NCBI GenBank assembly: GCA_017453405.1
Contig: JAFTKF010000201.1
Span: forward strand, 1-35,676
Reading direction: 5' to 3'
Length of the DNA: 35,676 nt
Source: Clostridia bacterium
GTDB taxonomy: Bacteria; Bacillota; Clostridia; Oscillospirales; CAG-272
Below are positions 1,954 to 31,347 of the stretch, piece by piece. The notes beneath the pieces were generated by a model. The model saw nothing but the letters and a program-made list of their open reading frames with translations. It was not told the origin of the DNA and made no database searches. Made by a program: the position numbers and the translations under genes. The first letter of the stretch is position 1. Every line of letters begins with the position of its first letter.

Positions 1954-4116
1954 ATGAAAAAAGCGATCTGTTTCTTTCTTACACTTTCTCTGATCATAGG
2001 AGGTATCGGTATGATTCAGCTATTTGCAGAAGGTGAGCTTCTCACCACCAACAAAACCGCATATACGCTCGACGAGCCGATTACGGTGACAGCCGTTGGC
2101 TCGGGCGCGGACTGGGTGGGCATCTATTATCCGGGTGCACCCAATTCGATCCGCTGGGTCTATGTGGAGGATGTCGGCTCGGGTGTGGCATTTGATATGC
2201 GCACCGTGGGCGAGGTCAATGCAGGCGCACCCGAAACACTCGGAGAAGGGCGTTACATCATCCGTCTGATGCCCGATGATACCACCGATCTTTCAAGAGC
2301 GCTTGCCGAAATTGAGATCACGGTGGGCGATGTGGCATCGCTTCCCGCCGTTGGTGGCGACACTTCCCGTCTTTCGGTTGAAAAAACCACCTTCGCGTAT
2401 AACGAACCGATCCGCGTTTCTGCAATCGGCTCGGGTAAGGACTGGGTCGGCATTTATTATCCCGGCGAAGCCCACTCAATCCGTTGGGCATACGTGACCG
2501 ATGTCGGCTCGGGCGTGGCTTTCGATGTGAAGACCGACACGCAAGATAACGGCTCTGCCCCTGCCGTCTTACCCGCAGGCGAATACATCATTCGCCTGAT
2601 GCCCGACGATACCAGCGATCTGAACCGCGCGATCGCGTGGGTGAATGTCACCATTGAAGCACCCCCTGCCGAAAAGCCCGAACAGCCGCTTTCGGCGACC
2701 TACACCCTCAAAAACGAGACCGACGGCTTTGCCGAGGGCACGATTCGTGTAACACTGGCAGAAGGAAGCGCCGCCACCGACATCCTTCCCTATTGGGGAG
2801 ATGAAAACGGCAAGCTTTCGGGCTATACCGCACTTGCGAAATTCAAGGTCACAGGCGCGACCACCGAACGGGAGATCGGTAAGAATATTCTGATTCCCCC
2901 GGGTGCTACCAAGCTGCTTCTTTACACCGTGAACGCAAACGGCGAAGTATCAGAAGAGCCGTATACCGTCGACCTTCCCGAAAATGCCGCCGCAAAGCCC
3001 TTTGGCGAGCCGATCGTGGAATTTCAGGCTGTCAGTGATATTCACCTGAACGCTTCGGCAAACCACACCTATAATGTCAATTTCAAGAAAATGCTGAAGG
3101 ATGTCGCCCTGACCAGCCCCAATAGCATTGGCATATTCATCGCGGGCGACATTGCCGACCACGGCTATGCGGAGGAGTTCAGACAGCTTACCGCCCTTCA
3201 CGCCTCGGTAGAAAACGCGCCTGAGTATTTTCTTGCCATCGGCAATCACGATCTGTATAACGGCTCGTATCAGGAAAAGCTCGCGCAGTTCCTGCAGTAT
3301 GCCAAGCTGCCGGACGGTGAAACTCCCACAAGCTCGCATTACGATTTCCGGCTGAATGGCTATCACTTTGTCTTTCTCGGTAACGATGCCGCTCCCGTGA
3401 ACGGCGTCGAAACCACCCTGAACCCCGCAACGATCCGCTGGCTTGACGAAACCCTCGCCAAAGACCGCGACGCGTCAAGACCCACCTTCGTGTTCCTGCA
3501 TCAGTCTCTCTACGACACCGTAGCGGGAAGCCTTGCCGGTCAGGGCTGGGACGGCGTTTCTAACGAAACCGGACTTCGACTGACCCTGAAGAAATATCCC
3601 GAGGTCATACTGTTCAACGGTCACAGCCACTGGACACTGGACTCCGAGCGCAATATGTACACGCGCTCCGACTCGCTTCCCACAATCTTCAATACCGCTT
3701 CGGTTGCCTATCTCTGGACAAGCTACCGTGTCACGGGCGGCGAAAATCTTGACGGCAGTCAGGGCTATTACGTTCGCGTTTACGACGATCAGGTGCTTGT
3801 ACTCGGCAGAGATTTCACCACAGGCGAATGGATTCCGTCGGCAATGTATGTCGTACCGTATGAAAAAGCGCCCTCGCAAACGCCCACCGATACCACCGAA
3901 GCGCCCAATACCGAGCTGACGCCCGACACCACCGAAGCTGACACCGTCACCGACACGCCGACAACGACCGACACCCCCACGACCACCGATACAGCAAAAT
4001 CCCCCAAGGATGACAAAACGCGCTCCCCCATTGGACTGATCCTCGGGATCGCCGCCGCTGTCATCGCCGTCGGTGCTGCTGTAGCGTTCGGTATCATAAA
4101 GAAAAAGAAACACTAA
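1954..4116 (+). CDS. Secreted, C-terminally membrane-anchored calcineurin-like metallophosphoesterase with two N-terminal repeat domains
   Basis: N-terminal signal peptide MKKAICFFLTLSLIIGGIGMIQLFA. Metallophosphoesterase motifs in order: VSDIHLN, GDIADHG, GNHD, FLHQ, NGHSHW. A Thr/Pro/Asp-rich stalk (TDTPTTTDTPTTTD) precedes the terminal TM helix LILGIAAAVIAVGAAVAFGII plus KKKKH. Confidence 0.85.
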   Translation: MKKAICFFLTLSLIIGGIGMIQLFAEGELLTTNKTAYTLDEPITVTAVGSGADWVGIYYPGAPNSIRWVYVEDVGSGVAFDMRTVGEVNAGAPETLGEGRYIIRLMPDDTTDLSRALAEIEITVGDVASLPAVGGDTSRLSVEKTTFAYNEPIRVSAIGSGKDWVGIYYPGEAHSIRWAYVTDVGSGVAFDVKTDTQDNGSAPAVLPAGEYIIRLMPDDTSDLNRAIAWVNVTIEAPPAEKPEQPLSATYTLKNETDGFAEGTIRVTLAEGSAATDILPYWGDENGKLSGYTALAKFKVTGATTEREIGKNILIPPGATKLLLYTVNANGEVSEEPYTVDLPENAAAKPFGEPIVEFQAVSDIHLNASANHTYNVNFKKMLKDVALTSPNSIGIFIAGDIADHGYAEEFRQLTALHASVENAPEYFLAIGNHDLYNGSYQEKLAQFLQYAKLPDGETPTSSHYDFRLNGYHFVFLGNDAAPVNGVETTLNPATIRWLDETLAKDRDASRPTFVFLHQSLYDTVAGSLAGQGWDGVSNETGLRLTLKKYPEVILFNGHSHWTLDSERNMYTRSDSLPTIFNTASVAYLWTSYRVTGGENLDGSQGYYVRVYDDQVLVLGRDFTTGEWIPSAMYVVPYEKAPSQTPTDTTEAPNTELTPDTTEADTVTDTPTTTDTPTTTDTAKSPKDDKTRSPIGLILGIAAAVIAVGAAVAFGIIKKKKH
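2056..2658 (+). repeat. Intragenic tandem duplication: two ~91-aa domains with a 330-nt period
   Basis: Residues 35-125 and 145-235 align colinearly (DEPITVTAVGSGADWVGIYYPG...RYIIRLMPDDTTDL versus NEPIRVSAIGSGKDWVGIYYPG...EYIIRLMPDDTSDL). The similarity is also visible at nucleotide level. Confidence 0.85.
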
Positions 4117-4166: not shown

Positions 4167-4915
4167 TATTGTCTTCTGATCACAAAATACAACGCTTCGT
4201 CGGTATCCTTCGGGGGCTCTTCCTCGGTTGAGCCGTAGACAGCAACCGTTTCAAAGGCGTGTCTTGTATACGCCCTCTCGATCGCCTCGGGCGAAAACCA
4301 GACCTGCCGCTGACTTTCCTCAAGACGCCGGTAGCTTTGGTTTTTTCCTTCTACAAAAAAGGTCAGATCAAATGTCGCGGCGAGCGGCTCTTCCTCTACG
4401 TGATTCTGCCAGATGCAGAACACACCGTCTTCATCGTACGCATAGGTATTCTCCCCGTAGGTGTGACGGAATTTATAGGCGGTATTGACATCGAACACGA
4501 AAATGCCGCCGGGCGCTACAAAATGCTTCAGTCGCGAAAACAAAGCGTCAAGATCGTCTTCGGTATCCAGATAATTGATCGAATTGAGACAGCAGTAGCC
4601 GCCGTCCACCGTGCCGTAGAGATCAAGCGCACGCATATCCTGACAGAGATATAAGGGATACAGCTCCGCTTCGTCACTGTTGTCACGTGCCGTCATCAGC
4701 ATATCCTCGGAGAGATCGACCGCGATCATATCATAGCCGCTTTTCGCAAATTTCACGGTCAGAATGCCCGTACCGCAGGCAAGGTCAAGAACCGTCGCGC
4801 CCTTTTCGATCCCGTGCCGCTTGAAAATGCGATCGATCATACGGTAGATCCCGTCATAATCAACCGAAGCATTCAGCGTGTCGTAAAAGCGCGCAAGCAC
4901 CGTATAAGCATTCAT
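4166..4915 (-). CDS. Class I SAM-dependent methyltransferase
   Basis: Motif I VLDLACGTGILT, followed by an acidic loop (AVDLSEDM) and a post-I/II pattern. The start overlaps the upstream stop as ATGA (4912-4915). Confidence 0.85.
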   Translation of the reverse strand: MNAYTVLARFYDTLNASVDYDGIYRMIDRIFKRHGIEKGATVLDLACGTGILTVKFAKSGYDMIAVDLSEDMLMTARDNSDEAELYPLYLCQDMRALDLYGTVDGGYCCLNSINYLDTEDDLDALFSRLKHFVAPGGIFVFDVNTAYKFRHTYGENTYAYDEDGVFCIWQNHVEEEPLAATFDLTFFVEGKNQSYRRLEESQRQVWFSPEAIERAYTRHAFETVAVYGSTEEEPPKDTDEALYFVIRRQ

Positions 4916-6201: not shown

Positions 6202-6963
6202 CTACTTTGTATTATATCTATTTTTTGCCCGATTGCAAGGGGTTTTTGCTTTTTTCAGGCAAAGAACATCAAAAGCGAAGCGAACGAGCGGCGTAAGCTT
6301 TAAAAAGCGCCGCGGCTCACACAGACAGCGCCACAGCCATTCCAAGGACATTGCCTGCATCACACGGGGCGCACGGCGAAGCCTGCCTGCGTAAATATCC
6401 AGACTGCCCCCGAGCGTCAGCACCGGGCAGGACAGCGTATCGGCAAGCTCGCGCCCCACCGTTTCCTGCAAGGGCGAGCTAAGACAGCAAAAAACAATAT
6501 CGGCGCGGCTTTTCACAAGCTCTTTTTTCACCGCGCAAAGATCGTCGAAATAGCCCGATCGACAGCCTGCCACGGTAAGCTTTGGGTAACGCATGCATAA
6601 CGCGCGTGCGGCAGATGTCGCAACGCCCTCCCTGCCCCCAAAGAAAAAAACCGAAAGCCCTTCCCTTGCCGCCCTTCGTAAGACTTCTTCCCCAAGGTCT
6701 ACTCCCGTGACTCTGCCATGGGGAAAGGGGGTATGCAGCCGCCTTGCCGCCCAGAGAATGCTTGTCCCGTCGGGAAAGGCAAACGCGGCATTCAGAAGGC
6801 TTGAAAACAACGCTTCGTTTCGCCGTGCCGTGGCAACAATCGAGCCGTTTGGGGTAACTGTCAGCGCACTTTGGTGCTTTTTTGCGCACGCAATGATGGC
6901 ATCTGCCCCCTCCTCCGGAGAAAGCGTATCAAACATAACCCCGAACAGCTCGATCTTCTTCAC
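6202..6963 (-). CDS. WecG/TagA/CpsF-family glycosyltransferase (wall-polymer linkage-unit ManNAc-transferase type)
   Basis: The ORF extends to 7089, but that would overlap rnhA. A GTG at 6963 is preceded by GAGGA and sits 16 nt after the rnhA stop. Family-like motifs: IELFGV..D, TPNGSIV, FPDGTSILWAAR, VFFFGGREGVA. Confidence 0.75.
   Translation of the reverse strand: MKKIELFGVMFDTLSPEEGADAIIACAKKHQSALTVTPNGSIVATARRNEALFSSLLNAAFAFPDGTSILWAARRLHTPFPHGRVTGVDLGEEVLRRAAREGLSVFFFGGREGVATSAARALCMRYPKLTVAGCRSGYFDDLCAVKKELVKSRADIVFCCLSSPLQETVGRELADTLSCPVLTLGGSLDIYAGRLRRAPRVMQAMSLEWLWRCLCEPRRFLKLTPLVRFAFDVLCLKKAKTPCNRAKNRYNTK
6211..6238 (-). promoter_or_regulatory. Possible internal SigA-type promoter for the membrane-protein/methyltransferase pair
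   Basis: On the minus strand: TTGCAA (6238-6233), 16-nt spacer, TATAAT (6216-6211). It lies inside the last codons of the TagA-like gene. Confidence 0.4.
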
Positions 6964-6979
6964 GTGTTCCTCAGTCCTT

Positions 6980-7426
6980 TCAGCGGCTGTACTTTTCAGC
7001 CTCACGAACGGCAAGCGCATCACAGCGCTCGTTATAGGGATGCCCTGCGTGACCCTTGACCCATACGTATGTAACCTCGTGGGGAGCAACCGCCGTAAGA
7101 AGGCGTTCCCAGAGATCGGGATTCAGCGCGGGCTTGCCGTCCGACTTCTTCCAGCCGCGGCGGCGCCAGTTTTCCGCCCAGCCCTTTTCCAGTCCGTCCA
7201 CCACGTAACGGGAATCCGAGGTGAATTGTACGCGGCAGGGGAATTTCAAGGCTTCAAAGGCGGCAATGGCACCCAGAAGCTCCATACGGTTGTTGGTGGT
7301 TTCGGCTTCTCCGCCCGACAGCTCCTTTTCAACGCCTGCCGCAACGAGGATCGCACCCCATCCGCCCGGACCGGGATTGCCCTTGCAGGCGCCGTCGGTA
7401 TAGATCTTGACATCGGTAATTCGCAT
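6980..7426 (-). CDS. rnhA: Ribonuclease HI
   Basis: From the internal ATG at 7426 (RBS GGAAAGGA): [66 protein letters not shown]. This is the full DEDD RNase H1 signature. The longer ORF to 7552 would overlap the LCP gene. Confidence 0.93.
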
Positions 7427-11885: not shown

Positions 11886-13223
11886 ATGAAGAAAAACGAG
11901 CTTGCTGTTTTGACGATCCTCGATATCAATAACCGCGGCTATGGCGTAGCGCGTGCCGAGGACGGGCGCGTGGTATTCGTCGCCAATGCCGTTACGGGCG
12001 AAACGGTGCAAGCCAAATATATCAAAGTCACCAAGGACTACGCCGTGGCGCGTGTGGAAAAAACGCTGACCAAAAGCGCCTGCCGCATTCCCTCCGACTG
12101 CCAAGCATTCCCTGCCTGCGGCGGGTGCGTGTATCGCCATATTGCCTATGACGATGAATTGAAGCTGAAGGAAAACTATGTCAAAAGCGCCTTCAAAAAG
12201 GCAGGCGTTGCCATCACCGTCGCGCCCTGTGAGTACGGCGACACCGAGGGCTATCGCAATAAGATCGAATGTCCCTTGACCGACGGCTACAAAGCAGGCT
12301 TTTATGCCGCCAAGACCCACCGCGTGATCGCGGCAGACGACTGCAAGCTGGAAAAGCCACAGCTTCGCGCAATTATGACCACCGTGACCGCGTGGCTGGA
12401 GGAGAACGATATTCCGCTCTATCACGAGGAAGACGGCAAAGGGCTTGTTCGGCATATCTATCTCCGTATCGGTGAAAAATCGGGCGAGGTATCGCTTGTG
12501 CTCGTTTTGAACGGAAAAACGCTTCCGCACGCCCAAGACTTTGTCGATACCGTCACACAAAAACACCCCGCGGTCGTATCTATCCTTCTTTCCCATAACG
12601 AGGAAAACACCAACGTGATCCTCGGAAAAAGCGCCACTCTCTTGTACGGAAAGGACGAGATTGAAGATACGCTCTGCTCGCTGACCTTCCGCCTATCCCA
12701 CCGCTCCTTCTATCAGGTCAATGCGCATATGGCGGAAAAGCTCTATCAAAAAGCGCTCACCCTTGCCGCACTCACCCCCGATGACACCCTTGCCGACCTC
12801 TTCTGCGGTGTCGGCACGATCGGATTATTTATGCTGAAGGAATCGGGCGCAAAATCGCTCCTCGGCATCGAGATCATTCCCGAAGCCATCGAAAACGCAC
12901 GCCGCAATGCCAAGCTGAACGGCATTGAAAACGCCACCTTCCTCTGCGGCGATGCCAATCGCGAAGAGCTTGCCTCTGCCGATGTCATCGTGGTCGACCC
13001 ACCAAGAAAGGGCTGCGAAGAATCCCTCCTTTGCCGCATCGCCGCTATCGCCCCCAAACGCCTCGTCTACATCTCCTGCAACCCCGACACCCTCGCAAGA
13101 GATGTCGCAGTGATGGCAAAGTATGGCTATACAACCGATACCGTATATCCGTTTGATCTGTTCCCGAGAACAGGACACGTTGAGAGTGTCGTTTGTCTGA
13201 CGAGGTCAGACAAAGCGACGTGA
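11886..13223 (+). CDS. rlmD: 23S rRNA (uracil-C5)-methyltransferase, RumA/RlmD type (TRAM domain plus 4Fe-4S cluster)
   Basis: N-terminal TRAM-like OB fold, cluster cysteines CRIPSDCQAFPACGGCVYRH, SAM motif DLFCGVGTIGL, DPPRKG, and ISCNP with the catalytic Cys. The C-terminus is FDLFPRTGHVESVVCL. Confidence 0.93.
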   Translation: MKKNELAVLTILDINNRGYGVARAEDGRVVFVANAVTGETVQAKYIKVTKDYAVARVEKTLTKSACRIPSDCQAFPACGGCVYRHIAYDDELKLKENYVKSAFKKAGVAITVAPCEYGDTEGYRNKIECPLTDGYKAGFYAAKTHRVIAADDCKLEKPQLRAIMTTVTAWLEENDIPLYHEEDGKGLVRHIYLRIGEKSGEVSLVLVLNGKTLPHAQDFVDTVTQKHPAVVSILLSHNEENTNVILGKSATLLYGKDEIEDTLCSLTFRLSHRSFYQVNAHMAEKLYQKALTLAALTPDDTLADLFCGVGTIGLFMLKESGAKSLLGIEIIPEAIENARRNAKLNGIENATFLCGDANREELASADVIVVDPPRKGCEESLLCRIAAIAPKRLVYISCNPDTLARDVAVMAKYGYTTDTVYPFDLFPRTGHVESVVCLTRSDKAT

Positions 13224-13317
13224 TATAGACGCCTTCGGCGTCGTGATATGCGCCTGCGGCGCGTGATATGGACACCTGCGGTGTCGTGATATAGAACGCT
13301 ACGCGTTCGTGATATGT
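13176..13317 (+). repeat. Left copy of a 142-bp direct repeat (last 16 rlmD codons plus five GTGATAT-hairpin units)
   Basis: It aligns without gaps to 14486-14627 (offset 1310) with 4 mismatches (13181, 13202, 13204, 13220). None of the mismatches falls in a stem. Confidence 0.95.
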
Positions 13318-13507
13318 CGCTTGCGCGACGTAAGGCGATGGCGTTCCACGCGCACAAAGTGCGCATATCACGCCGAGCAAAGCGAGGCTATATCACGAAA
13401 GCCAACGGCTTTCCATATCACGCTTGCGCAGCAAGCATATCACGACGGCATCGCCGTCCATATCACTCTACCGCAGTGGACAATTCATATCACTCCGCGT
13501 TAGCGGA
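13188..13507. repeat. Hairpin array: 12-13 short stem-loops separated by the conserved linker GTGATAT(A/G) (5 forward copies), then its complement ATATCAC (6 copies)
   Basis: Forward motifs start at 13220, 13243, 13263, 13286 and 13309. Reverse motifs start at 13365, 13390, 13415, 13437, 13460 and 13487. Perfect stems between them all differ in sequence: gacgcc/ggcgtc, gcgcc/ggcgc, gacacc/ggtgtc, gaacgc/gcgttc, gtcgc/gcgac, gcgcac/gtgcgc, gaaagcc/ggctttc, gcttgc/gcaagc, gacggc/gccgtc, tccgc/gcgga. A 14-bp hairpin (13188-13219) is built from the rlmD terminal codons. Confidence 0.9.
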
Positions 13508-13520
13508 CAAAGGAGTATTT

Positions 13521-13874
13521 ATGCCCAAAACCTCCCACGAGCTTGCAATTGAATTTGCAGTTGAAATCACTGAATTATGCTCAAAAATAAAGGGTCGCCC
13601 CGAATATACAAAGCAGCTTATTCGCAGTGCATCTTCAATCAGCGCGAACATTGCGGAAGCAAAATATGCCGAAAGCAACGCTGACTTCGTTCATAAGCTT
13701 GAAATAGCCCAAAAGGAAGCAAACGAAACAGAAACTTGGCTTAGTGTTTTATACAAGAGCGGTATTATTGACGAAGTGACATTCAAATCTCTGCGCAACA
13801 GGTGCGGCAAGATCAGAAGAATGTTGATTGCTTCTATTACAACTGTTAAGACCAAAATAAACGGACAAAAGTGA
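13521..13874 (+). CDS. Four-helix-bundle protein (23S rRNA intervening-sequence protein / DGR Avd-like family)
   Basis: 117 aa from the ATG at 13521 (AAAGGAG RBS). The family signature is LIRSASSISANIAEAKYAESNADFVHKLEIAQKEANETETWL. The ORF-track extension to 13314 is read-through of the repeat array. Confidence 0.85.
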   Translation: MPKTSHELAIEFAVEITELCSKIKGRPEYTKQLIRSASSISANIAEAKYAESNADFVHKLEIAQKEANETETWLSVLYKSGIIDEVTFKSLRNRCGKIRRMLIASITTVKTKINGQK

Positions 13875-13934
13875 GTTTTGAACAAAACGAAATAACTCTA
13901 CTCAGCGCTAAAATTATTTATGAAAGGTTTTATT

Positions 13935-14345
13935 ATGATACCACTTAATATCAAATGTAGTAAATGCGGTGCAATTTGCAGCATATCAAGCCACAGAAAG
14001 TTTACAGTATGTCCGTATTGCGGAGAAAAGACTCCATTTGAGGGCTTTACTTATAGAGAGATAAATCGAAAATCGAGCAAATATGCAAACGTAAAAAAGG
14101 AAATGGACTGCCCGTCTTGTCGAAGCCCTCATATGTTTCTTTATTATTCGTTATTTGGTAAATGGAGATGTGAAGACTGTGGTTACACAATTTCAAATTT
14201 CAATAAAATGTTTGGTGTTTTTTGGTTTTGCGATAATTGCGAGACATATATGAATATTCAAGAGGGGTTCACCACAAAAGAGAAAACGTGGACTTGCACG
14301 GAGTGTGGCTTTAAAAACAGTGTCACTAAAGATGATATTCTTTAA
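13935..14345 (+). CDS. Small triple zinc-ribbon protein (six CxxC pairs), function unknown
   Basis: CSKC/CPYC, CPSC/CEDC and CDNC/CTEC pairs. The ATG at 13935 has a GAAAGG RBS; an upstream in-frame ATG lies at 13920. The region is very AT-rich (I counted 18 G+C in 13921-13980). Confidence 0.75.
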   Translation: MIPLNIKCSKCGAICSISSHRKFTVCPYCGEKTPFEGFTYREINRKSSKYANVKKEMDCPSCRSPHMFLYYSLFGKWRCEDCGYTISNFNKMFGVFWFCDNCETYMNIQEGFTTKEKTWTCTECGFKNSVTKDDIL

Positions 14346-14461
14346 CATTTAAAGAGAATTGCAAAGAGAAGAGAAAAATCTTCTTGATTTTATAACAAAT
14401 AAAATGTGTTGTAAGCAAAAATGAGAACTTTTGGAGTTTTCACTCCCATTTTTCAACCATT

Positions 14462-14533
14462 TTTATACCTTTTGGAGTCTTGACCCACGTGGAGAGTGTC
14501 GTTTGTCTGACAAAGTCAGACAAAGCGACATGA
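14462..14533 (+). pseudogene. Orphan duplicate of the rlmD 3' end (reads ...HVESVVCLTKSDKAT-stop)
   Basis: 14486-14533 is near-identical to 13176-13223, including the stop. The preceding ~24 nt translate to IPFGVLT, which only loosely resembles FDLFPRTG. There is no upstream ORF body. Confidence 0.8.
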
Positions 14534-14627
14534 TATAGACGCCTTCGGCGTCGTGATATGCGCCTGCGGCGCGTGATATGGACACCTGCGGTGTCGTGAT
14601 ATAGAACGCTACGCGTTCGTGATATGT
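14486..14627 (+). repeat. Right copy of the 142-bp direct repeat. Degenerate hairpin units continue to ~14700
   Basis: See the left copy. After 14627 the sequence diverges but keeps the same grammar: hairpin, then CGTAATGC (compare CGTAAGGC at 13329-13336), then gccgc/gcggc and acagca/tgctgt hairpins up to the RBS of the next gene. Confidence 0.95.
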
Positions 14628-14715
14628 ACCCTACGGGCAACGTAATGCCGCGCTCGGTGCGGCGTGTGGGGTGCTGACAGCAGAAGTGATGCTGTAATGC
14701 AAAAAGGAGACTGCT

Positions 14716-15768
14716 GTGAAAGAAGAAAAAAGTATAATAGAAGCAATGTCTGAGACCTTAGCGGATGCAATTGGGGATGACGATTTTTCTCTGCCGCTTG
14801 CCGCGTGGCAAGCAAGCGCTTCCGCATCCGAAGCAATCAATATGGCGTATCGGGAGGAAATCAAACGATACCGGGAAAATCCTGTCCCCGTTTGCAACAA
14901 AGCCGCTGCGCAAAAGCTTTTGAAACGCTTTTCCCGCAAGGATTTTCGCGATTTTTGGACTGCTCCCATCGAAGAATATCTTCCCGCTGTCAGCGAAGGT
15001 ACGATGAAGCTTTGCGAAACGGTTTATCCGCATACCGAAGCGATTCGCTATGCCAAAGAATTGATCGCGACACTTTCGCCAAAGGAATTGGCAAAAGATT
15101 TTCTTTACGGTGTTGCACACAATGCGTCCGAATTCAGAACGGCGCTTGCCTGCTATTACTACATAAAAAATCTCCCCGAGCACGAATTTGAAAAGAAATA
15201 TGTTGGCTCTGTCGTAGGCAAAGACGGTGCATTCGAGGACAGATACAACGAAACCGGATGTGAGATCTGCGGCTATCAGCACGCTGTCAGCCTTGAGCCG
15301 AAAATGCAATTCTGGCACATAAATACGGATATGGCAAATTTCTATTTTGACGGGCGAATGGAGCGTTCCTCACTCAATACGGCAATCATCTTTTTAGAAG
15401 AATATAAAACGGTATCCCGTCCCGAACATTCCATTGCCGATTACAAGCATTTCAAGAAAGTGATCGAGGTTATCGAAAACACACCGCAAACGATGACATC
15501 GGGAAAGCTTCGCCGCGAATTAAAGCAATCGGGACTGCTTTCAATGACACAGGATCAAATCGGGATTTTCATTAACACGCTCGGTTATTTGGATATTCTT
15601 CATTCCGATGATTCACACGGTATGATTTACTCGCACACACCCGAAAAAGAGATGCTGTACCCGCTCAGCGACAGAGGCTATGCCGCACATCCTGTAAACC
15701 GTTGGACGCGCAAATGCGGTATTGACTACGATAGCATTTCCCTGCTTTTTGACGGGCTTTACGAATAA
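14716..15768 (+). CDS. Hypothetical 350-aa soluble protein, no recognisable domain
   Basis: GTG start at 14716, 6 nt after AAGGAG. The ORF is long and uninterrupted with a plausible mixed helical composition. It has a single CEIC pair. Confidence 0.7.
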   Translation: MKEEKSIIEAMSETLADAIGDDDFSLPLAAWQASASASEAINMAYREEIKRYRENPVPVCNKAAAQKLLKRFSRKDFRDFWTAPIEEYLPAVSEGTMKLCETVYPHTEAIRYAKELIATLSPKELAKDFLYGVAHNASEFRTALACYYYIKNLPEHEFEKKYVGSVVGKDGAFEDRYNETGCEICGYQHAVSLEPKMQFWHINTDMANFYFDGRMERSSLNTAIIFLEEYKTVSRPEHSIADYKHFKKVIEVIENTPQTMTSGKLRRELKQSGLLSMTQDQIGIFINTLGYLDILHSDDSHGMIYSHTPEKEMLYPLSDRGYAAHPVNRWTRKCGIDYDSISLLFDGLYE

Positions 15769-15835
15769 GATCTGCTTTTTGCGCGGTGCCGGGCGTTTCA
15801 CAAGAGGAATGGTTAGTATAGCGAAAGGAATACGT

Positions 15836-16297
15836 ATGCAGAAGAGTAACTTGATCATAACTCGTCACGACAACAAAATAACAATTAAGAAAAAACCTGA
15901 GGTTGCACATTGTGTGATTTTCACAATGGTATTTCTCGCAGGGATTTTCCTTCCTATCGTTTTGGATGAGCTAAGAGATGTTGAATTATTTTGGGTGGTT
16001 TATGCCTTCTGTATGTTGACGAATATCGCCACCTTTACATCGGTTTTCTTCGGAAAAATCGTGGTTGACTCCGATAAGAGAGAACTCAATATCTATAATT
16101 TGTGCAGAGAAACGTACCCTTTTGAGGATGTGAAAGAACTCAAGAGTTTCTTTAAAGAGGGGGATTCCGACGGCGGAATGGATACCCACAAAGTGTTGTT
16201 CATATTTACAAACGGGCATCAAAGCGAATTGCAAACAACAAGCCAAGAGCAAACACAGGAACTGATGGAACTATTGAAGTCAATGATATATTCGTGA
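15836..16297 (+). CDS. Small membrane protein: two TM helices plus a beta-rich (bPH-like) C-terminal domain
   Basis: The ATG at 15836 follows GAAAGGAA. TM helices are VAHCVIFTMVFLAGIFLPIVL and FWVVYAFCMLTNIATFTSVFF. The TGA stop is embedded in a GTGATATA motif (16294-16301). Confidence 0.65.
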   Translation: MQKSNLIITRHDNKITIKKKPEVAHCVIFTMVFLAGIFLPIVLDELRDVELFWVVYAFCMLTNIATFTSVFFGKIVVDSDKRELNIYNLCRETYPFEDVKELKSFFKEGDSDGGMDTHKVLFIFTNGHQSELQTTSQEQTQELMELLKSMIYS

Positions 16298-16335
16298 TAT
16301 AATAGCGCCTTCGCCGTCCATACCGTGCACATCAC
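16283..16335. repeat. Degenerate relic of the GTGATAT / ATCAC hairpin array
   Basis: ATGATATA (16283-16290), GTGATATA (16294-16301), then atagcgccttcgccgtc (compare gacgccttcggcgtc in unit 1), then ACATCAC (16329-16335). Confidence 0.5.
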
Positions 16336-16361
16336 AGTAGATTAAGAAAGGAACTATAAAA

Positions 16362-16874
16362 ATGACCAACCGTACCGCGTACACGTATGATCTTTTACTC
16401 AAAACCAATCTCTTTCTGGTAGAAAAGGAGAAGCGAAAGGGGTTGATTACTTGTTTTCTGATGGGGGTCATTGGCATCACTTTTATCCTTATGGACTCAC
16501 TGTCAGAAGATTATTATTGGTTATGTGCCGGGGGCGGATTTTTTGCCGCTTCGCTCCTCAGGCTCTTATTCATACTGAGACTCAGAAAATCGAAGGTTTC
16601 CGAAACGGTAAAAAAATTTATCCAAGAAAATCCCGGAAAGACAGTGGACTATCAATTTGAAGAGAATGCTGTGATCATTCGCGAGAGAAGTCCTCAATAC
16701 CAATCGGATACTTGCCTTTCCTATTCCTTCATCCACAAAGTACAAAAAATTGATGATACCACATTTTATTTTATTTCCTCCAACAACCGCCTCTATGCGG
16801 TAGAGGACGATCGGAATATGGAAGCGATCCTTGTATTTTTAGCGGAAAAAGTGGGAATATGCCTCGAAAAATAA
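16362..16874 (+). CDS. YcxB-like / bPH-architecture membrane protein
   Basis: Two central TM helices (LITCFLMGVIGITFILM, WLCAGGGFFAASLLRLLFIL) followed by a ~90-aa beta-rich domain. The RBS is GAAAGGAA. Confidence 0.65.
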   Translation: MTNRTAYTYDLLLKTNLFLVEKEKRKGLITCFLMGVIGITFILMDSLSEDYYWLCAGGGFFAASLLRLLFILRLRKSKVSETVKKFIQENPGKTVDYQFEENAVIIRERSPQYQSDTCLSYSFIHKVQKIDDTTFYFISSNNRLYAVEDDRNMEAILVFLAEKVGICLEK

Positions 16875-16920
16875 TGTCACCGTTCCGATATCCCAACACA
16901 CGATCGAAAGGAATATTGTT

Positions 16921-17427
16921 ATGATCCCCTACTACTTACAGAAGCACCTGACCGACATACGCGAAAAGAAGGATACCACATCGGCGATCCTTGCCTCCTC
17001 GACCGGCAACACCTTGTTGGAAATCCTGTATTACGGCGACACGGTGACGATCAAGCGGACACCGTATATCACAGACGGCGAGTACCCCTGTCTGATCGTC
17101 GCCAGAGACCCTCTCACCGACGAGACCTTCACGGTTTTTGACGGCGCCAAGCACGGCTATGACGCTATGTTTTGCAATGAGCCATGCGACAAAGCGGAAA
17201 GACCCCTGACTCGCTACAACGCCGAGGGTGCAAGCGTGAAGATCACGCTTGGCTATGCGATCGATTACGAGGACGAAAAAGACGATTATGACTTCACCGA
17301 AACGGGCGAGGTCATCCTCACGTACGGCACAATGGACTGGGAAAAAGCCAAGTCCATCGGCTTCGACTGGCTTTCGCTCTCGTTTGTTGACACCAAAAAG
17401 GAATTTGTCGACCTTGAACTGGTGTAA
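16921..17427 (+). CDS. Hypothetical 168-aa acidic soluble protein
   Basis: The RBS GAAAGGAA precedes the ATG at 16921. I recognise no domain. Confidence 0.65.
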   Translation: MIPYYLQKHLTDIREKKDTTSAILASSTGNTLLEILYYGDTVTIKRTPYITDGEYPCLIVARDPLTDETFTVFDGAKHGYDAMFCNEPCDKAERPLTRYNAEGASVKITLGYAIDYEDEKDDYDFTETGEVILTYGTMDWEKAKSIGFDWLSLSFVDTKKEFVDLELV

Positions 17428-17475
17428 AAACAATCCTTGCCGCGCTTCATTTTTCTTTACGAAAGGATATTGCCT

Positions 17476-18501
17476 ATGCATGCGGTCATTTTTCTCCTGC
17501 TGACACTGATTGATATTACCTCTCTTATTCTGATCGTGAGAAGACTTCGCGACATTCGGAAAAACCCTCACAAATATGATGAAACTGAGCTTGTCAACAG
17601 AGCTGACGACTATGCGAGCAACCGGGACTATTGCCGATTTTTCAAGTCGCTCTCTCACCAATACAGCGGAGTCGGACTGCTTCTTTCCTTTCTCCTGACA
17701 GCTCTCAGCGGCGTACTGCTTTGGGTGCTTGACCGACTGATCGCGGGAAGCGGAACTTCCATCACCCCGGGGGCTCGGGGAGCAGGCATTGTCGCCATGC
17801 TTTTTCTGAATCTGATCGTTGGTATCGCGATCATTCCGCTCCATATCAAAACCCCCTTTTTCACCGTGATGGTCGACGGTGCCTTTGACGGAAACCGTCG
17901 GGATATCTGGAAAAAGAGTTATATCGCCTTTCTCATTCTGTTCGCCATTACTTTTCCGTTTTTCACCCTTTCAGCCAATCACTATACCCACTACAACGAG
18001 AGTGGGATCACCCATTCTGCCTTTTTCCAAATCGACGAGACTTTTACGGCGTATGAAGAGATCGAGGATGTATGGATTTCGGTCGGTCATAACAAGCACG
18101 GACAGTTCTCGGCACTACGGTACGAGGTCTTGCTGTCAGACGGCAGACGCCTTGATCTTTCAAGCACCTATTACAACGAAAACACCCTTGCCATTCACCG
18201 CTATATCGAAGCGACAAGCAATTGCCGTATGCATATCGAGCCTCTCAGCGAGGACGACCTTGCCGAGCTGCAAGAGAGGCTATCCCCCGAACGGCTTGCC
18301 ATCGTTTTGTATATTTTCGAAGGCATTCACGAAACGGCAGAGCCGTCCTCCTTTCACGCCGTCGAAGACGGCATATCACGCTTGCAAAGCAAGCATATCA
18401 CGGGGCTGAGGCTGAAAAAGCCCTTTGTTGACAAATGCGTCGAAAAGCTTTCGCACTGCGATAAGGTAAGCGTGCAAAACCGCTTTCAGGAAAACCCCTG
18501 A
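17476..18501 (+). CDS. Membrane protein (about 4 TM helices) with a soluble C-terminal domain. The last ~60 codons run through a repeat array
   Basis: The ATG at 17476 follows AAAGGA. The first ~170 aa contain TM helices. From about 18324 the reading frame is made of ATATCAC-hairpin units, so the native stop may have been displaced. Confidence 0.6.
   Translation: MHAVIFLLLTLIDITSLILIVRRLRDIRKNPHKYDETELVNRADDYASNRDYCRFFKSLSHQYSGVGLLLSFLLTALSGVLLWVLDRLIAGSGTSITPGARGAGIVAMLFLNLIVGIAIIPLHIKTPFFTVMVDGAFDGNRRDIWKKSYIAFLILFAITFPFFTLSANHYTHYNESGITHSAFFQIDETFTAYEEIEDVWISVGHNKHGQFSALRYEVLLSDGRRLDLSSTYYNENTLAIHRYIEATSNCRMHIEPLSEDDLAELQERLSPERLAIVLYIFEGIHETAEPSSFHAVEDGISRLQSKHITGLRLKKPFVDKCVEKLSHCDKVSVQNRFQENP
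18324..18423. repeat. Third array locus: ATATCAC-type linkers (2 perfect, 2 degenerate) alternating with 5 hairpins
   Basis: In order: CATTCAC (18324-18330), acggc/gccgt hairpin, TTTCAC, gccgtc/gacggc hairpin (18358-18372), ATATCAC (18373-18379), gcttgc/gcaagc hairpin (18380-18394), ATATCAC (18395-18401), gggct/agccc hairpin (18403-18423). The gcttgc-NNN-gcaagc unit also occurs at 13422-13436. Confidence 0.8.
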
Positions 18502-18632
18502 TACGCGTTTTTCCAAAGAAAGGAAAATAGACAAATGAAGGTTTTTATGAAAAGCCAAGTGACGGATGATTCTTACCCAATCCTGACAAAATTGGCGCCG
18601 TCGCAATTCTATCATAAAGGAGTACTGCAATT

Positions 18633-19292
18633 ATGGGACTGTTTTTCAAAAAAGAAGCACCCGATCACCGCTATGTACAGGTCAAAATGACCGTGAACGG
18701 CGAAGTCACCTTGGGCTGGATGGTGGATTCGCTCGCCGAGGATGAGGAACAAAACCGCTCGTCCTTCAATAAAAAATACGGCATCAGCTACATCCGCTCG
18801 ATTCCCGATGAGGTGGACGGCTATCCCGTGCTCGGTCTTACGCCAAGCGCGATGCGCTCACTTTACAGCCAACGCACCACGCTGCCCCAAAACGCCGTAT
18901 TCGTTTGCCTGCGCACTGCCCAGCAACGCTTTCTTTCGGCAAAATTCGACAGCGACAAAGAATATGCCATTCCAAGACTGCAATCGAATCTACCGTGGAA
19001 GATCAGCTTTTACAGCAGTGACGGTGTTGGTTATACGCATTACACCGTGCGCGGCGGCTATATCTCGCAAAAAGACGAAAACGGCGAAAAGCGTGAGCTT
19101 TGGAATCTCCGCTTACAGCATTACGGAATGGATGCGCACACCAAGGATGTCCTGATGCATTTCGCGGCAGATATACACACCTACGAGGGCAAGAAAATGG
19201 GCTACGGCGAATTCTGGCCCTGCCTTGTCCGCGAGGATATTGCGGATAGCTTTACCCTGCTGTTTCCCCGAAACGGCGAAACCTTCTTTTAA
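18633..19292 (+). CDS. Hypothetical 219-aa protein
   Basis: An AAAGGAG lies 10 nt upstream of the ATG. I recognise no domain. Confidence 0.6.
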   Translation: MGLFFKKEAPDHRYVQVKMTVNGEVTLGWMVDSLAEDEEQNRSSFNKKYGISYIRSIPDEVDGYPVLGLTPSAMRSLYSQRTTLPQNAVFVCLRTAQQRFLSAKFDSDKEYAIPRLQSNLPWKISFYSSDGVGYTHYTVRGGYISQKDENGEKRELWNLRLQHYGMDAHTKDVLMHFAADIHTYEGKKMGYGEFWPCLVREDIADSFTLLFPRNGETFF

Positions 19293-29615: not shown

Positions 29616-30039
29616 CTATCTTTTCCCGACCGAGCCTGCCTATCTTCTGACCCTGCACGCAGAGCAGGACCAAGCCGAGGTGGCACCCTACCTACACGCG
29701 CTCTCCCGATCCTATCGTCACTATGCCATTGCTTCCCCGATCGACAATTTCTTTGGGGATGGCGTGACAGCTGTCCTTGAACACGCATCGGTTGCTGTCG
29801 CCTTTCTCTCGCCGCACTTTTTTCAGGACGAGATCCTGCGCTCAGCGCTTCGCCATCTGGCAATTTCGGATATTCCGATTTTATTGGTGTACCTTGAAGA
29901 AACGCCCCTGACCGCCGGTATGCAGCTTCAGCTTTCGCTTTGCCCCGTTTTCTACCCGAAGCGCCACCCTTCCGTGGAATCCGCTGTCAAAACCCTTGTG
30001 AACGCCCCCTTCCTTCGCGAAGCACTCCTGCAGTCGTAA
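29605..30039 (+). CDS. Small cytoplasmic protein with a TIR-like (TIR_2 / DUF1863-type) strand-helix pattern
   Basis: The ATG at 29605 follows GAAAGGA (the ORF-track start is TTG at 29599) and overlaps the upstream gene end. The pattern is AYLLTLH ... ASVAVAFLSPHFFQDE ... IPILLVYLEE. This is fold-level recognition by eye only. Confidence 0.4.
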   Translation: MMLDYLFPTEPAYLLTLHAEQDQAEVAPYLHALSRSYRHYAIASPIDNFFGDGVTAVLEHASVAVAFLSPHFFQDEILRSALRHLAISDIPILLVYLEETPLTAGMQLQLSLCPVFYPKRHPSVESAVKTLVNAPFLREALLQS

Positions 30040-30043
30040 AAAA

Positions 30044-30076
30044 AGAGCATAACGGCATTTACCGCCGTTATGCTCT
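30044..30076. terminator. Bidirectional intrinsic terminator
   Basis: agagcataacggc (30044-30056) pairs perfectly with gccgttatgctct (30064-30076), with a 7-nt loop. It is flanked by A5 upstream and TTTT downstream, between convergent genes. Confidence 0.8.
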
Positions 30077-30087
30077 TTTAGGGTATA

Positions 30088-31032
30088 CTACGGTTGCTTC
30101 GCGCGGGGTTTTCTAAAACAACGCCATAAAACGATACAGATCGCGCAAAGTGTGCCCAATACAATCAGGATGATAGCATAGAATGCCCACATATTGTAAA
30201 TGCCAATCAGCAAACTAGGTTGTGATTGGACAGGTCGTGCCGATACAATCGCCCCACCCACACGGTAAGGGGTAAGATCCATACCCACATCATCTTCCAA
30301 TGTAACATCGCCGTATGAAAGCTTCGCCCGTTTTTCAGTAACACGCGAGGCAAACGCGCAAAATTGATCGAGCGGCATCAATACGCCGGGATAATTGACG
30401 GATATTTCACCCCGGGCATAATCGTGATAATAAACATAATCACCCTTTGTGGTGATGAAATAGAGATAAAAACCGTCGCGCGAAGCTGTTCCGTCAAGAC
30501 AGTACAGCTTCACAATCTCGATTTTCTCGCTTGACTTGGTTGCGACCGTTGAATGAAACATGGAATCGGGAGAAAATATTGTATTGACCGTCGCACGAAG
30601 AGGCGAAGTCTCTAAAGATGAATACAAGCTTGTGAAGCTGCCGTCGGCATTTTTTTGATATTCTGAAAGCGAAAGCGAAGAAACTGAAACATAGCTTTCC
30701 TGAACATCGGTCTTTGCAAGCATTGCATCCAAAGAAAGGCATTTGGCAAAATCCGCCATAAACGAGCCACGGTACAGCTTTAACACTGCCAAAACACTGT
30801 CATTACGGATAGCGGATGTTTCTGAGCGCGACACCGCCAATGAATCGTTACGGCTTTGGGAAAGCGTTTCTTGATACGTAGGCGATACGGTAATCGGCGT
30901 TTGAGCGGAATTCACAGAGTCTTCTGTGGTAACAGACAACGCCGCTGATTCTTGATCCAATGCATATACCGTAATAACCGAGCAAATTGCAAGTACCATA
31001 ATGATTACCAATAACAAAAAATGCTTCTTCAT
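30088..31032 (-). CDS. Hypothetical bitopic surface protein (N-terminal signal/anchor plus C-terminal TM helix)
   Basis: MKKHFLLLVIIMVLAICSVITVYA at the N-terminus, AFYAIILIVLGTLCAICIVLW near the C-terminus, and a Ser/Thr-rich N-terminal region. The RBS is GGAGGT. Confidence 0.7.
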   Translation of the reverse strand: MKKHFLLLVIIMVLAICSVITVYALDQESAALSVTTEDSVNSAQTPITVSPTYQETLSQSRNDSLAVSRSETSAIRNDSVLAVLKLYRGSFMADFAKCLSLDAMLAKTDVQESYVSVSSLSLSEYQKNADGSFTSLYSSLETSPLRATVNTIFSPDSMFHSTVATKSSEKIEIVKLYCLDGTASRDGFYLYFITTKGDYVYYHDYARGEISVNYPGVLMPLDQFCAFASRVTEKRAKLSYGDVTLEDDVGMDLTPYRVGGAIVSARPVQSQPSLLIGIYNMWAFYAIILIVLGTLCAICIVLWRCFRKPRAKQP

Positions 31033-31044
31033 AGAATAACCTCC

Positions 31045-31314
31045 TTATCCAAAATAGTACGGTATTGTATTTTGCGAATAATCGGTATCGACCGTAATTG
31101 CACATTCCCACACACCGGTATCGGGAATTTCTCCGCTTACTGTGTTACGACCATTAATCAGTTTTACATATGAATAAAATTCAAATACTCCATTTGTCGG
31201 TCCGGGATCTTGAATAAGATACAAATATGTATTACCACTCTTTACATAACCGGTTATAACCATCATATGTCCTCCATTACGAGACCCAATCGATGTGATA
31301 TCCGAAAAGCGCAT
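31045..31314 (-). pseudogene. Probable remnant: His/Asp half of a papain-like (C39-like) cysteine peptidase lacking the catalytic-Cys half
   Basis: GGHMMVITGY...IQDPG resembles the His-loop region of C39-like peptidases. It has no signal peptide and no Cys motif. A separate 16-codon signal-peptide-like ORF lies upstream (31336-31386). Confidence 0.4.
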
Positions 31315-31347
31315 AGAAAGTGAATCGCGATCTTTCTATGCGCTTTT
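31305..31347 (-). other. Perfect 16-bp inverted repeat (11-nt loop) spanning the leader-ORF stop and the downstream ATG
   Basis: aaaagcgcatagaaag (31305-31320) is the exact reverse complement of ctttctatgcgctttt (31332-31347). Confidence 0.9.

Follow-up and report, generated by a model that had tools for sequence, protein, structure and literature searches.

Integron attC sites are imperfect palindromes of 57–141 bp with R''/L''–L'/R' boxes and a GTTRRRY core, and SCC and psiSCC elements accrete at rlmH. In streptococci, tandem accretion of ICE, IME and CIME elements has been described at rplL, tRNA genes and rumA (rlmD), the last being a known hot spot (PMC7168690). The Gut-1 motif (Rfam RF01706, sRNA class, function unknown) consists of three hairpins on one strand; it was published from gut-associated uncultured bacteria only, with no stated function, context or partner, and was rated a certain RNA from its covariation (Weinberg et al. 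2010, PMC2864571).

We analysed a window of 35,676 nt (contig JAFTKF010000201.1 of a Clostridia bacterium), in which rlmD is followed by hairpin arrays and a gene for a four-helix-bundle (4HB) protein. The window has 24 copies of the heptamer GTGATAT where 2.8 would be expected; no shuffle reached this count, and 18 of the 24 copies lie within 13220–18401. The features are, in order:

11886–13223, plus strand: rlmD (23S rRNA U1939 C5-methyltransferase); TIGR00479 E = 7.6e-116, TRAM and tRNA_U5-meth_tr domains.
13176–13317, plus strand: direct repeat R1, 142 nt, 97% identical to 14486–14627.
13220–13329, minus strand: left half of array A, five units of GTGATAT plus a GC hairpin of 5–6 bp; Gut-1 match at 13218–13297 (42.6 bits, E = 4.7e-6).
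13330–13349, no strand: centre of array A, gtaaggcgatggcgttccac, kept in the orthologous arrays of L219, L255, L257 and L263.
13350–13507, plus strand: right half of array A, six to seven units of hairpin plus ATATCAC on the coding strand, reaching the RBS of the 4HB gene.
13521–13874, plus strand: 4HB gene (PF05635/TIGR02436; Avd/23S rRNA IVS protein family); Pfam E = 3.6e-26, NCBIfam E = 4.4e-29.
13920–14345, plus strand: Zn-ribbon protein gene, with weak Zn-ribbon Pfam matches; variable cargo of the first cassette.
14426–14533, plus strand: cassette boundary site, made up of an arm and, in frame, an orphan rlmD 3' end.
14486–14627, plus strand: direct repeat R2, the orphan rlmD end and four array units; Gut-1 match at 14528–14607 (43.2 bits, E = 3.3e-6).
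14530–14641, minus strand: array B, upstream of a 350-aa gene, with four intact units plus a degenerate one; fold z = −6.4.
16274–16335, plus strand: promoter-like region claimed as array C, overlapping the stop of a 153-aa gene; not an array.
18321–18403, plus strand: array D, remnant of a right-type half array with three to four units.
18404–18501, plus strand: 3' fragment of a different gene, joined in frame after array D; its homologue is the C-terminal part of L306's first ORF.

The arrays resemble Gut-1 in their three or more short GC hairpins and conserved heptamer, and the Gut-1 covariance model matched the window with E of about 1e-6. The three matches scored 43.2, 42.6 and, for array D, 35.1 bits (E = 3e-6, 5e-6 and 4e-4, respectively); no window copy reached the RF01706 gathering score of 50 bits, and the linker reads GUGAUAU instead of GUGAAAU. 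The layout agrees, with three consecutive short hairpins and the heptamer GUGAnAU between them (model positions 1–77 aligned). In 12 of the 16 related loci scanned, the model gave 15 matches above the gathering score (50.4–63 bits), and the GTGATAT linker was confirmed in the above-threshold arrays inspected, i.e. all but those of L154 and L217. Judged from these matches, the window arrays are a GUGAUAU-linker variant of Gut-1. They differ from the published motif in being built of two convergent halves, in a loop bias on the opposite strand and in their tie to 4HB genes.

Array A (13188–13507) begins with the terminal hairpin of rlmD (predicted, 14 bp, 13188–13219) and continues with five units of GTGATAT plus hairpin, the 20-nt centre and six to seven units of hairpin plus ATATCAC. 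Folded as DNA, the two halves gave z = −5.9 (left) and −3.6 (right), and none of 200 shuffles folded as well. The G..A loops of the left half lie on the minus (ATATCAC) strand, its first linker supplies the rlmD stop codon, and units of the right half are also found upstream of the 4HB genes of L161, L194, L219 and L268. Repeat R1 holds the last 16 codons of rlmD (HVESVVCLTRSDKAT, then the stop) with the terminal hairpin, followed by the first four to five array units, and array B (14499–14641) is a 97% copy of 13176–13317. A preliminary description of this DNA had attributed three stop codons to the motif, and all three are correct: 13221–13223 (rlmD), 14531–14533 (the orphan rlmD end) and 16295–16297 (the 153-aa gene). 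It had also noted hairpin units common to several loci; indeed, 13414–13444 and 18372–18402 are 94% identical, and gacggc..gccgtc at 13444–13458 recurs with swapped arms, as gccgtc..gacggc, at 18358–18372.

Four array loci had been proposed to divide the island into four gene blocks. Three of them are real (13188–13507, 14499–14641 and 18321–18403). The remaining one, 16283–16335, contains one GTGATAT, is unstructured (z = −0.14; 86 of 200 shuffles fold as well) and gave no Rfam match at E ≤ 1. The best sigma-70-like match of this region (TTGAAG-18-TGaTATAAT, 16274–16303) contains that GTGATAT; the sequence 16274–16335 looks like a promoter, and we rejected it as a degenerate array. Blocks 2 and 3 are therefore not separated, whereas the 4HB and Zn-ribbon genes are bracketed by the 142-nt direct repeat including the orphan rlmD end. 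Array D gave a fold with z = −2.7, and 3 of 200 shuffles were as good. In the annotation, it is not between genes but inside a predicted ORF (17476–18501) that reads through it, at the point where homology to the real protein of approximately 290 aa ends.

Among 1611 stem pairs of the arrays, 98.5% are Watson–Crick, and G–U pairs are as scarce as A–C mismatches (9 vs 4). On the ATATCAC strand, 131 loops read G..A and none T..C. The arrays almost always consist of two convergent halves of 3–10 units each (69 convergent clusters vs 1 divergent). Stems vary between units, and the 493 units hold 318 unique spacers. GNRA-type tetraloops are frequent (33 of 89). C-GNA-G triloops also occur, a loop form characteristic of DNA mini-hairpins of very high stability. 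In the predicted minimum free energy fold (z = −9), the linkers of the left half pair with those of the right half. The convergent two-half build, the near-perfect stems, the strand-specific loops, the association with 4HB genes through a lineage-linked heptamer and the place of the little-diverged 4HB module behind U5 rRNA methyltransferase genes (see below) are new here.

A free-standing or UTR-embedded structured RNA without a dedicated protein, e.g. a transcript stabiliser, an insulator or a terminator-proximal element, would agree with the Rfam class and the covariation rating of Gut-1 (PMC2864571), with the GNRA-type tetraloops and with the position of right halves within the 5' UTR of the downstream gene. 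It would also agree with the type-1 arrays, which have terminator-like hairpins on their flanks and a conserved TAnAAT at their centre; in these, however, a reading of the sequences found no conserved −35 element. The near absence of G–U pairs argues against an RNA-only structure. Moreover, the favoured loop strand is the opposite of the Rfam Gut-1 strand. An RNA without a protein partner would also leave the change of heptamer with 4HB lineage (see below) unexplained, and we consider it improbable.

Related arrays recur in intergenic regions of gut and rumen Clostridia, as a multi-copy element with more than 100 sites. We found at least 120 loci; among the matches listed, all but 3 were from Clostridia MAGs, 106 of 120 passed a strict hairpin test and one MAG contributed up to 4. 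Their flanks hold diverse housekeeping genes and phage (structural) genes, some arrays directly follow tRNA or SRP RNA genes, and convergent gene pairs are in excess (33 of 97). Many type-1 arrays appear at one conserved locus across different species. When 227 flanking ORFs were compared (by clustering only), rlmD was the sole clear recurrence (4 loci), plus several two-locus clusters. One two-locus cluster is relaxase-like in its N-terminal sequence. With over 100 intergenic sites near housekeeping, tRNA and phage genes, the arrays are not cassette-specific; the preliminary description had itself named such general scatter as speaking against its association of arrays with cassettes.

Short intergenic palindromes beside a conserved short sequence, in inverted clusters and with many copies per genome, recall REP/BIME elements and RAYTs, and in L271 the 4HB gene is flanked by inverted copies. 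The units could be selfish single-stranded DNA elements that owe their copying and spread to a single-strand nuclease of HUH (RAYT-like) or other type, which would recognise hairpin and heptamer on the lagging-strand template, the 4HB neighbourhood being incidental. Near-perfect Watson–Crick stems without G–U excess, the C-GNA-G triloops, tandem expansions and inverted intergenic half-arrays, often between convergent genes, fit this idea. However, the arrays keep the heptamer only and their stems vary from unit to unit, unlike the near-identical palindromes of a REP family. No Y1/HUH gene was seen beside any array (227 flanking ORFs, clustering only), and the partner here is a 117-aa helical bundle without a nuclease motif. 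Covariation of the heptamer with the 4HB lineage and the conserved locus of many type-1 arrays in different species also argue against such spread, which is an unlikely explanation of the arrays.

Arrays adjoin 4HB genes in every 4HB context examined. Of 17 cases, 16 have a right-type half directly before the 4HB start; in L271, the gene stands between the two halves. Five heptamers were found, one per 4HB lineage (GTGATAT, GTGAGAT, GTGAAGT, TCGATAT and ATGAATT); the comparison covers six protein groups, of which the L128 group (45% identity) uses the GTGATAT of the main group. The 4HB protein of the window matches PDB 2rld (E = 5e-20). Our main reading, to which we give a probability of about one half from these sequence comparisons, is that the arrays belong to the Gut-1 family, are a candidate binding platform of the cognate 4HB protein and are passengers and fragile points of the island, not its recombination sites.

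The heptamer–hairpin repeat would bind a 4HB oligomer, and the element would act single-stranded, via its ATATCAC strand. Upstream of 4HB genes, this is the mRNA sense strand, and the right half would therefore be a 5' UTR. The linkers of the two halves, being complementary, may pair into a ladder-like series of short helices from which the hairpins stick out; this ladder would precede or bracket the 4HB ORF like the stem of the 23S rRNA intervening sequence around homologous ORFs. For 116 of 120 genome array loci among the matches listed, no 4HB gene lies in the 8 kb examined, so the 4HB partner would have to act in trans. Against this reading, the left half has its favoured loops antisense to the upstream gene, so that no single transcript can carry both halves favourably oriented, and the scarcity of G–U pairs speaks against a structure at the RNA level only. 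At the DNA level, repeated 7-mers and hairpins would favour slippage and recombination. We propose that this is how units were shuffled and tandemly expanded and how the 142-nt duplication and the array D breakpoint arose. Orthologous arrays carry shared units in different order (gaaagcc-gcttgc in the window vs gcttgc-gaaagcc in L161 and L219).

Downstream of rlmD, a separate cassette system does exist in relatives, jointed by a site made of an arm and the rlmD core. Cassette accretion anchored at the conserved rlmD end, with no local integrase, had been suggested and is borne out by L219 and L214, in which one site, present five or six times, stands between small ORFs of the same orientation; the order of these ORFs differs between the genomes. 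The site (consensus of 11 sites from 6 loci) is ~90 nt long in relatives, where an arm and an in-frame rlmD end lie between small, shuffled, promoterless ORFs. The platform gene is rlmD, and its 3' end is the anchor; multiple orphan rlmD ends occur in L194, L214, L219, L263 and L268. In the window copy, ACCTTTTGGAGTY is present twice in the arm (14426 and 14467), and the core is CACGTG GAGAGTGTCGTTTGTCT plus a hairpin. The window holds this one boundary and, therefore, the 4HB and Zn-ribbon genes are its only bounded cassette; the genes after 4HB differ in other genomes. A 1469-bp contig (L261) carries a junction of the kind that recombination between R1 and R2 would produce, in a circle or a tandem. 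The arrays did not keep their proposed role as boundary sites: cassette order varies in relatives, but 10 of the 11 cassette boundaries of L219 and L214 have the arm and core without an array.

These cassettes resemble those of integrons and CALINs, being small promoterless co-oriented ORFs of unknown function, each followed by one ~90-nt site, shuffled between genomes and inserted next to a fixed platform; in the window, the promoterless co-oriented arrangement holds for the first block only. They differ in that there is no IntI, the site is a sequence-conserved arm plus platform gene end and not a variable attC hairpin, and the platform is a housekeeping gene completed by each cassette. The attC form is found neither in the arrays, which are direct strings of 20–25-nt GTGATAT units, nor in the arm and core consensus, which has no significant dyad symmetry. 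As in accretion at gene 3' ends, direct repeats with the conserved gene end stand at every junction (here 13176–13317 and 14486–14627), and some known elements of that kind have no recombinase of their own; the units here, however, are 0.3–1.3 kb with one to three ORFs, compared with several kb. The window ORFs searched against Pfam/NCBIfam had no recombinase domain, and none turned up in the gene calls of L247, in L263, L268, L269, L271 and L281 or at any rlmD locus examined. We propose that accretion at rlmD uses the separate arm and core site, with the recombinase supplied in trans.

The arrays might themselves be attC-like sites, every array being a cassette joint at whose heptamers a recombinase encoded elsewhere acts. 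Arrays A and B bracket the 4HB and Zn-ribbon block, assemblies break at both, a rearrangement relative to L306 breaks at array D, and shared units are permuted as described above. In addition, the junction in contig L261 has the orphan-type variant at all four diagnostic mismatches, which places the crossover inside the array part (92 nt of shared units) and leaves room for array participation. However, no array is present at other breakpoints relative to L306, at 17459 and around the CitMHS gene; contig L259 begins next to 16283–16335, the proposed locus that was rejected as an array. Most boundaries of L219 and L214 have no array, and over 100 array sites lie beside housekeeping, tRNA and phage structural genes without variable cargo. 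Finally, slippage and homologous exchange of the 7-mer repeats can explain the unit shuffling without a recombinase. We regard attC-like arrays as very unlikely and keep to arrays as passengers and fragile points.

The array and 4HB module is far less diverged than the adjoining methyltransferase genes: 4HB is 94–96% identical in amino acids and 84–88% in nucleotides across genomes, whereas the adjacent RlmD proteins are 46–50% identical and their genes are barely alignable as DNA. Strong purifying selection explains part of this conservation. Between the window and L219, 42 of 117 4HB codons differ synonymously, and the spread is not recent. The module occurs in hundreds of near-identical copies, on contigs of 0.5–1.5 kb. 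At U5 rRNA methyltransferase genes, it lies immediately 3' of HVESVVCL, a conserved coding motif of the C-terminus.

It shares with 23S rRNA intervening sequences a PF05635 ORF with sequences before it, or on both sides, that can pair across it, and a sporadic distribution that suggests mobility. It differs in its protein-coding neighbours, with no rRNA match in the window, in adjoining rRNA methyltransferase genes at their 3' end, and in its arms, which are hairpin arrays joined by 7-nt helices and not one long stem. We suggest, tentatively and with clear doubt, that PF05635 4HB proteins may bind heptamer–hairpin arrays sequence-specifically and form with them a mobile module that homes to U5 methyltransferase 3' ends, amid integron-like rlmD cassettes moved by a recombinase in trans. 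If so, 4HB and array would make up a novel type of small mobile module comparable to rRNA intervening sequences, and gut Clostridia would stack single-ORF cassettes, each ending in an arm and rlmD-end site, behind rlmD. In L299–L302, a putative large serine recombinase of 588 aa is encoded beside a 4HB module, and the end of its ORF is the methyltransferase motif GHVEAVALLQQL.

The heptamer GTGATAT occurred 24 times in the 35.7-kb window (2.8 expected), and 18 of these copies lay between 13220 and 18401; the remaining six were scattered singly, without hairpins. The preliminary description had placed four hairpin arrays in this island downstream of rlmD.

Arrays and neighbouring features downstream of rlmD (window coordinates)
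13188-13507: array A; 14-bp hairpin from the last rlmD codons, then five units of GTGATAT plus GC hairpin, a 20-nt centre, and 6-7 units of hairpin plus ATATCAC
13521-13874: four-helix-bundle (4HB) gene, directly after array A
13920-14345: Zn-ribbon gene
14499-14641: array B, within a 142-nt direct repeat (13176-13317 versus 14486-14627, 97% identical)
16270-16345: claimed array C
18321-18403: array D

Predicted single-strand folds were far more stable than those of shuffled sequences for the left (z = -5.9) and right (z = -3.6) parts of array A and for array B (z = -6.4), and moderately so for array D (z = -2.7). Array C showed no excess (z = -0.14; 86 of 200 shuffles were as good) and was rejected as an array; its lone GTGATAT falls in TTGAAG-18-TGaTATAAT, the region's best match to a promoter. 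This leaves three of the four loci standing. The three stop codons supplied by the motif and the hairpin units common to different loci were as previously described. Because the linkers of its left and right halves are complementary, the complete array A is predicted to form a ladder in which 7-bp linker helices carry the hairpins as side branches (z = -9). Its right-hand units end at the ribosome-binding site of the next gene. RlmD ends in TRSDKAT (window 13188-13223), seven residues whose codons make up the 3' arm of a predicted hairpin and pair there with the VVCL codons, so the inserted module dictates the C-terminal tail of the protein.

At gathering thresholds, Rfam gave no match in the window and 15 matches to RF01706 (Gut-1 RNA) in related loci. 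With E-value reporting and the full model length, the window arrays scored 43.2, 42.6 and 35.1 bits against RF01706 (gathering score 50; E = 3e-6 to 4e-4). Gut-1 was described from 43 human-gut metagenome sequences as three hairpins joined by GUGAAAU; its authors rated it as certainly an RNA and not cis-regulatory, and gave neither function nor organism (Weinberg et al. 2010, PMC2864571). The window carries a GUGAUAU variant of Gut-1. The motif itself is already known, and has been an orphan since 2010.

We scanned a genome collection for three ATATCAC at unequal spacing, which yielded at least 120 loci. Allowing any spacing of 12-20 nt between three GTGATAT copies returned mostly plain giant-virus tandem repeats, and unequal gaps were used instead. 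All but three of the listed loci came from Clostridia MAGs of the gut or rumen (Oscillospiraceae, Acutalibacteraceae, 'Eubacteriales', Christensenellaceae), and among the matches listed there were up to four loci per single MAG, with 106 of 120 passing a strict test of consecutive perfect hairpins. The array anatomy was drawn from 124 loci. In 273 distinct units, 98.5% of the 1611 stem pairs were Watson-Crick (G:T, 9; A:C, 4), and loops of 3-4 nt read on the ATATCAC strand were of the form G..A in 131 cases (GAA, GCA, GTA, GCAA, GTAA, GAAA) and T..C in none. This bias indicates that one strand is under selection, opposite to the Rfam orientation. GTGATAT-units preceded ATATCAC-units in 69 clusters, and the reverse order occurred once. 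It is improbable that the arrays are a protein-independent structured RNA, a reading in keeping with the published rating of Gut-1; both the lack of G-U pairs and how the left half is oriented speak against a purely RNA model.

The genes flanking arrays were diverse and mostly housekeeping, forming 33 convergent, 48 tandem and 16 divergent pairs, and some arrays sat directly after tRNA or SRP RNA genes. Flank clustering found rlmD to be the only neighbour at more than three loci (four loci). The arrays are thus scattered generally in intergenic regions, a distribution that the preliminary description had itself named as contrary to its proposal that arrays mark cassette boundaries. BLAST of array A against phage and plasmid collections returned nothing relevant. 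The phage contig L038 has arrays at 3774-3925 and 4240-4395 on either side of a 98-aa gene. Read by eye, this gene resembles a Prp-type protease, and it adjoins a large 615-aa gene read as a portal gene; the two arrays have one identical unit in common, ctgccgccctgcggcag.

Several loci showed tandem expansion: 20 units as a 3-unit super-repeat (L158, 2430-3012), 17 units as a 4-unit super-repeat (L242, 4270-4775) and three ~300-bp copies of a 5-6-unit array (L237, labelled Butyrivibrio crossotus, 6503-7311). We considered and rejected a sigma-70 promoter in the middle of type-1 arrays, where TAnAAT is conserved but no consistent -35 element is. A conserved stretch, gggtttgggctactgcccaa..gcatttgtacatacaaatgcgatgctggttct..ttctccgataagaacaacac, lay 60-170 nt downstream of many type-1 arrays in different MAGs (L130, L144, L147, L200, L222, L240 and about 15 other loci). 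Rfam returned no match to it at the gathering threshold, and it may be a structured element or leader not yet described.

The gene after array A encodes a PF05635/TIGR02436 protein, from a family of 23S rRNA intervening-sequence ORFs related to the DGR protein Avd (PMC10053308). The family is very abundant, a single lineage giving 7273 matches. To our knowledge, it has no known role outside DGRs. Most homologues of the window protein were carried by short contigs (0.5-1.5 kb) and fell into clusters with as many as 672 members. The 4HB gene adjoined an array in each of the longer contexts retrieved, and in nearly all of them (L263, L268, L269, L271, L281, L298) it was directly 3' of a U5 rRNA methyltransferase gene. 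In 16 of 17 cases, the 4HB start codon was directly preceded by a right-type half. On L271 each of the two methyltransferase paralogues has its own 4HB gene, and a 4HB gene lies between two array halves. On L263 a second paralogue without TRAM (17306-18676) ends in the rlmD-end core described below (GAGAGTGTCGTTTGTCT) and has its own full array, so both paralogues serve as platforms. Gene callers extend 4HB genes upstream through the arrays (for example protein P0014, 194 aa). Across six protein groups, the heptamer covaried with the 4HB protein.

Heptamers of arrays by 4HB protein group (identity to the window protein)
Lineage at >=75% identity: GTGATAT / ATATCAC
L288 gene 1, 68%: GTGAGAT / ATCTCAC
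L298, 60%: TCGATAT / ATATCGA
L128, 45%: GTGATAT
L271 gene 2 and L299, 44%: GTGAAGT / ACTTCAC
L288 gene 2, 42%: ATGAATT / AATTCAT

We favour the reading that 4HB proteins have the arrays as their cognate cis-element. The arrays would fold single-stranded on the ATATCAC strand, which upstream of 4HB is the mRNA sense strand, and would zip into a ladder preceding or bracketing the 4HB ORF; the repeated 7-mers would make them recombination-prone. Binding by 4HB, the strand and the type of nucleic acid are what we infer here. Literature searches (motif; rlmD and cassettes; PF05635) found no description of an array-4HB-rlmD association. As far as that literature shows, the two-half architecture, the strand bias, the pairing with PF05635 genes, with its heptamer covariation, and the home at methyltransferase gene ends are new. 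The lineage-specific pairing of protein and heptamer offers a testable function for both Gut-1 and PF05635.

The 4HB protein was 94-96% identical between genomes whose RlmD proteins were 46-50% identical. At the nucleotide level 4HB was 84-88% identical, and rlmD could be aligned only in patches (65-70%). Being far less diverged than RlmD, yet with 42 synonymous differences in 117 codons between the window and the related contig L219, the module has spread between lineages, but not recently. It is under strong purifying selection.

Cassette boundaries behind rlmD were found in a different element. On L219 and L214, a ~90-nt site recurred in five or six copies spaced 0.3-1.2 kb apart. Its arm has two ACCTTTTGGAGTY repeats together with a CCCCCATTTTT stretch, and its core, CACGTnGARAGTGTCGTTTGTCT, copies the rlmD end in frame and encodes HVESVVCL (consensus of 11 sites). 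Each interval holds a ribosome-binding site and one small ORF in the orientation of rlmD, and the rlmD frame, as read from the sequence, often ends in an ATGA overlap with the ORF start. The two contigs carry the same cassettes in different order (a 62-aa membrane peptide, a ~95-aa Zn-ribbon protein and a 120-aa protein), and none of the 10 ORFs scanned in the cassette regions of L219, L214, L194 and L268 had a significant Pfam match. We conclude that the arm/core site is a real cassette boundary. Cores carried an array and the long hairpin's 3' arm only where a 4HB module followed. The single arm/core site of the window (14426-14533) makes its first block (array, 4HB, Zn-ribbon) a bounded 1.3-kb cassette. 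Of the four blocks into which arrays were said to divide the island, blocks 2-4 have no arm/core sites between them, and array C is not real.

On the 1469-bp contig L261, the right end of the cassette is joined to the repeat, orphan-type on both sides; from its sequence, this junction would be as expected of a circle or tandem duplication. All four diagnostic mismatches put the crossover within the repeat's array portion. That the arrays are attC-like recombination sites would suit this crossover, and is nonetheless very unlikely given their general scatter. The arm/core cassette arrays resemble both integrons and integrative-element accretion, but they do not pass the tests that define an integron. 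They would be a gene-capture platform in Firmicutes, and would help to explain assembly breaks at these loci in gut Oscillospirales. We know of no report of integrons in Firmicutes. Dyad symmetry of the serine-integrase type in the arm/core site was not significant (12 of 26 positions, several tied axes). BLAST of the site against phage and plasmid collections gave nothing relevant, and an IMG/VR scan for the arm motif gave one chance match in a coding region. In a metagenome scan for the junction of rlmD end and linker, 3 of 10 loci were relevant among the matches listed. Cargo of rlmD-linked islands included genes of the DNA-mimic family DMP19 (L268, 10660-11067; L306, 1765-2160), a SASA esterase, an APH kinase and a cellulase.

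Neither the scanned window ORFs nor the gene calls of L247, another compared contig, included a recombinase, transposase or reverse transcriptase. That the arrays are REP/RAYT-like single-stranded DNA elements we regard as unlikely. L299 (3114-4880; also L300-L302) encodes a 588-aa large serine recombinase (Resolvase, Recombinase and Zn_ribbon_recom domains) adjoining a 4HB module. Its ORF ends in ...GLDKDGHVEAVALLQQL*, the motif at the C-terminus of U5 rRNA methyltransferases, so an element seems to be inserted inside such a gene. In streptococci, rumA is a recognised hot spot for integration (PMC7168690). The module directly after the L299 recombinase is of the GTGAAGT type and is bracketed by direct repeats of the end hairpin and left half-array.

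Contigs from other samples with 99.6-100% nucleotide identity to the window, retrieved by exact-protein look-ups, showed no variation in content, and neither an empty site nor strain-level presence/absence was seen among them. Their breaks fall at arrays A and B; one of them begins at 16272. In L306 (~80% nucleotide identity), homology to the window ends at 18336, the start of array D, and picks up again at 18616; between these points L306 has four other genes and no arrays. What follows array D in the window is a fragment from the 3' end of another gene. Together, these two observations indicate that array D marks a rearrangement joint. The window also differs from L306 at 17459 and in where the CitMHS gene lies, in both cases without an array. 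Homologues of the window's 341-aa protein (17476-18501) are 288-294 aa long; the predicted protein is a fusion of ~290 aa with real homologues, array D translated as ...AVEDGISRLQSKHITG..., and the last ~30 codons of another gene. A second low-GC stretch without arrays (window 30000-31600; 0.40-0.46 against about 0.53) contains a 280-nt AT-rich spacer and, on the minus strand, two ORFs (314 and 89 aa) that match nothing in Pfam; it may be another acquired segment.
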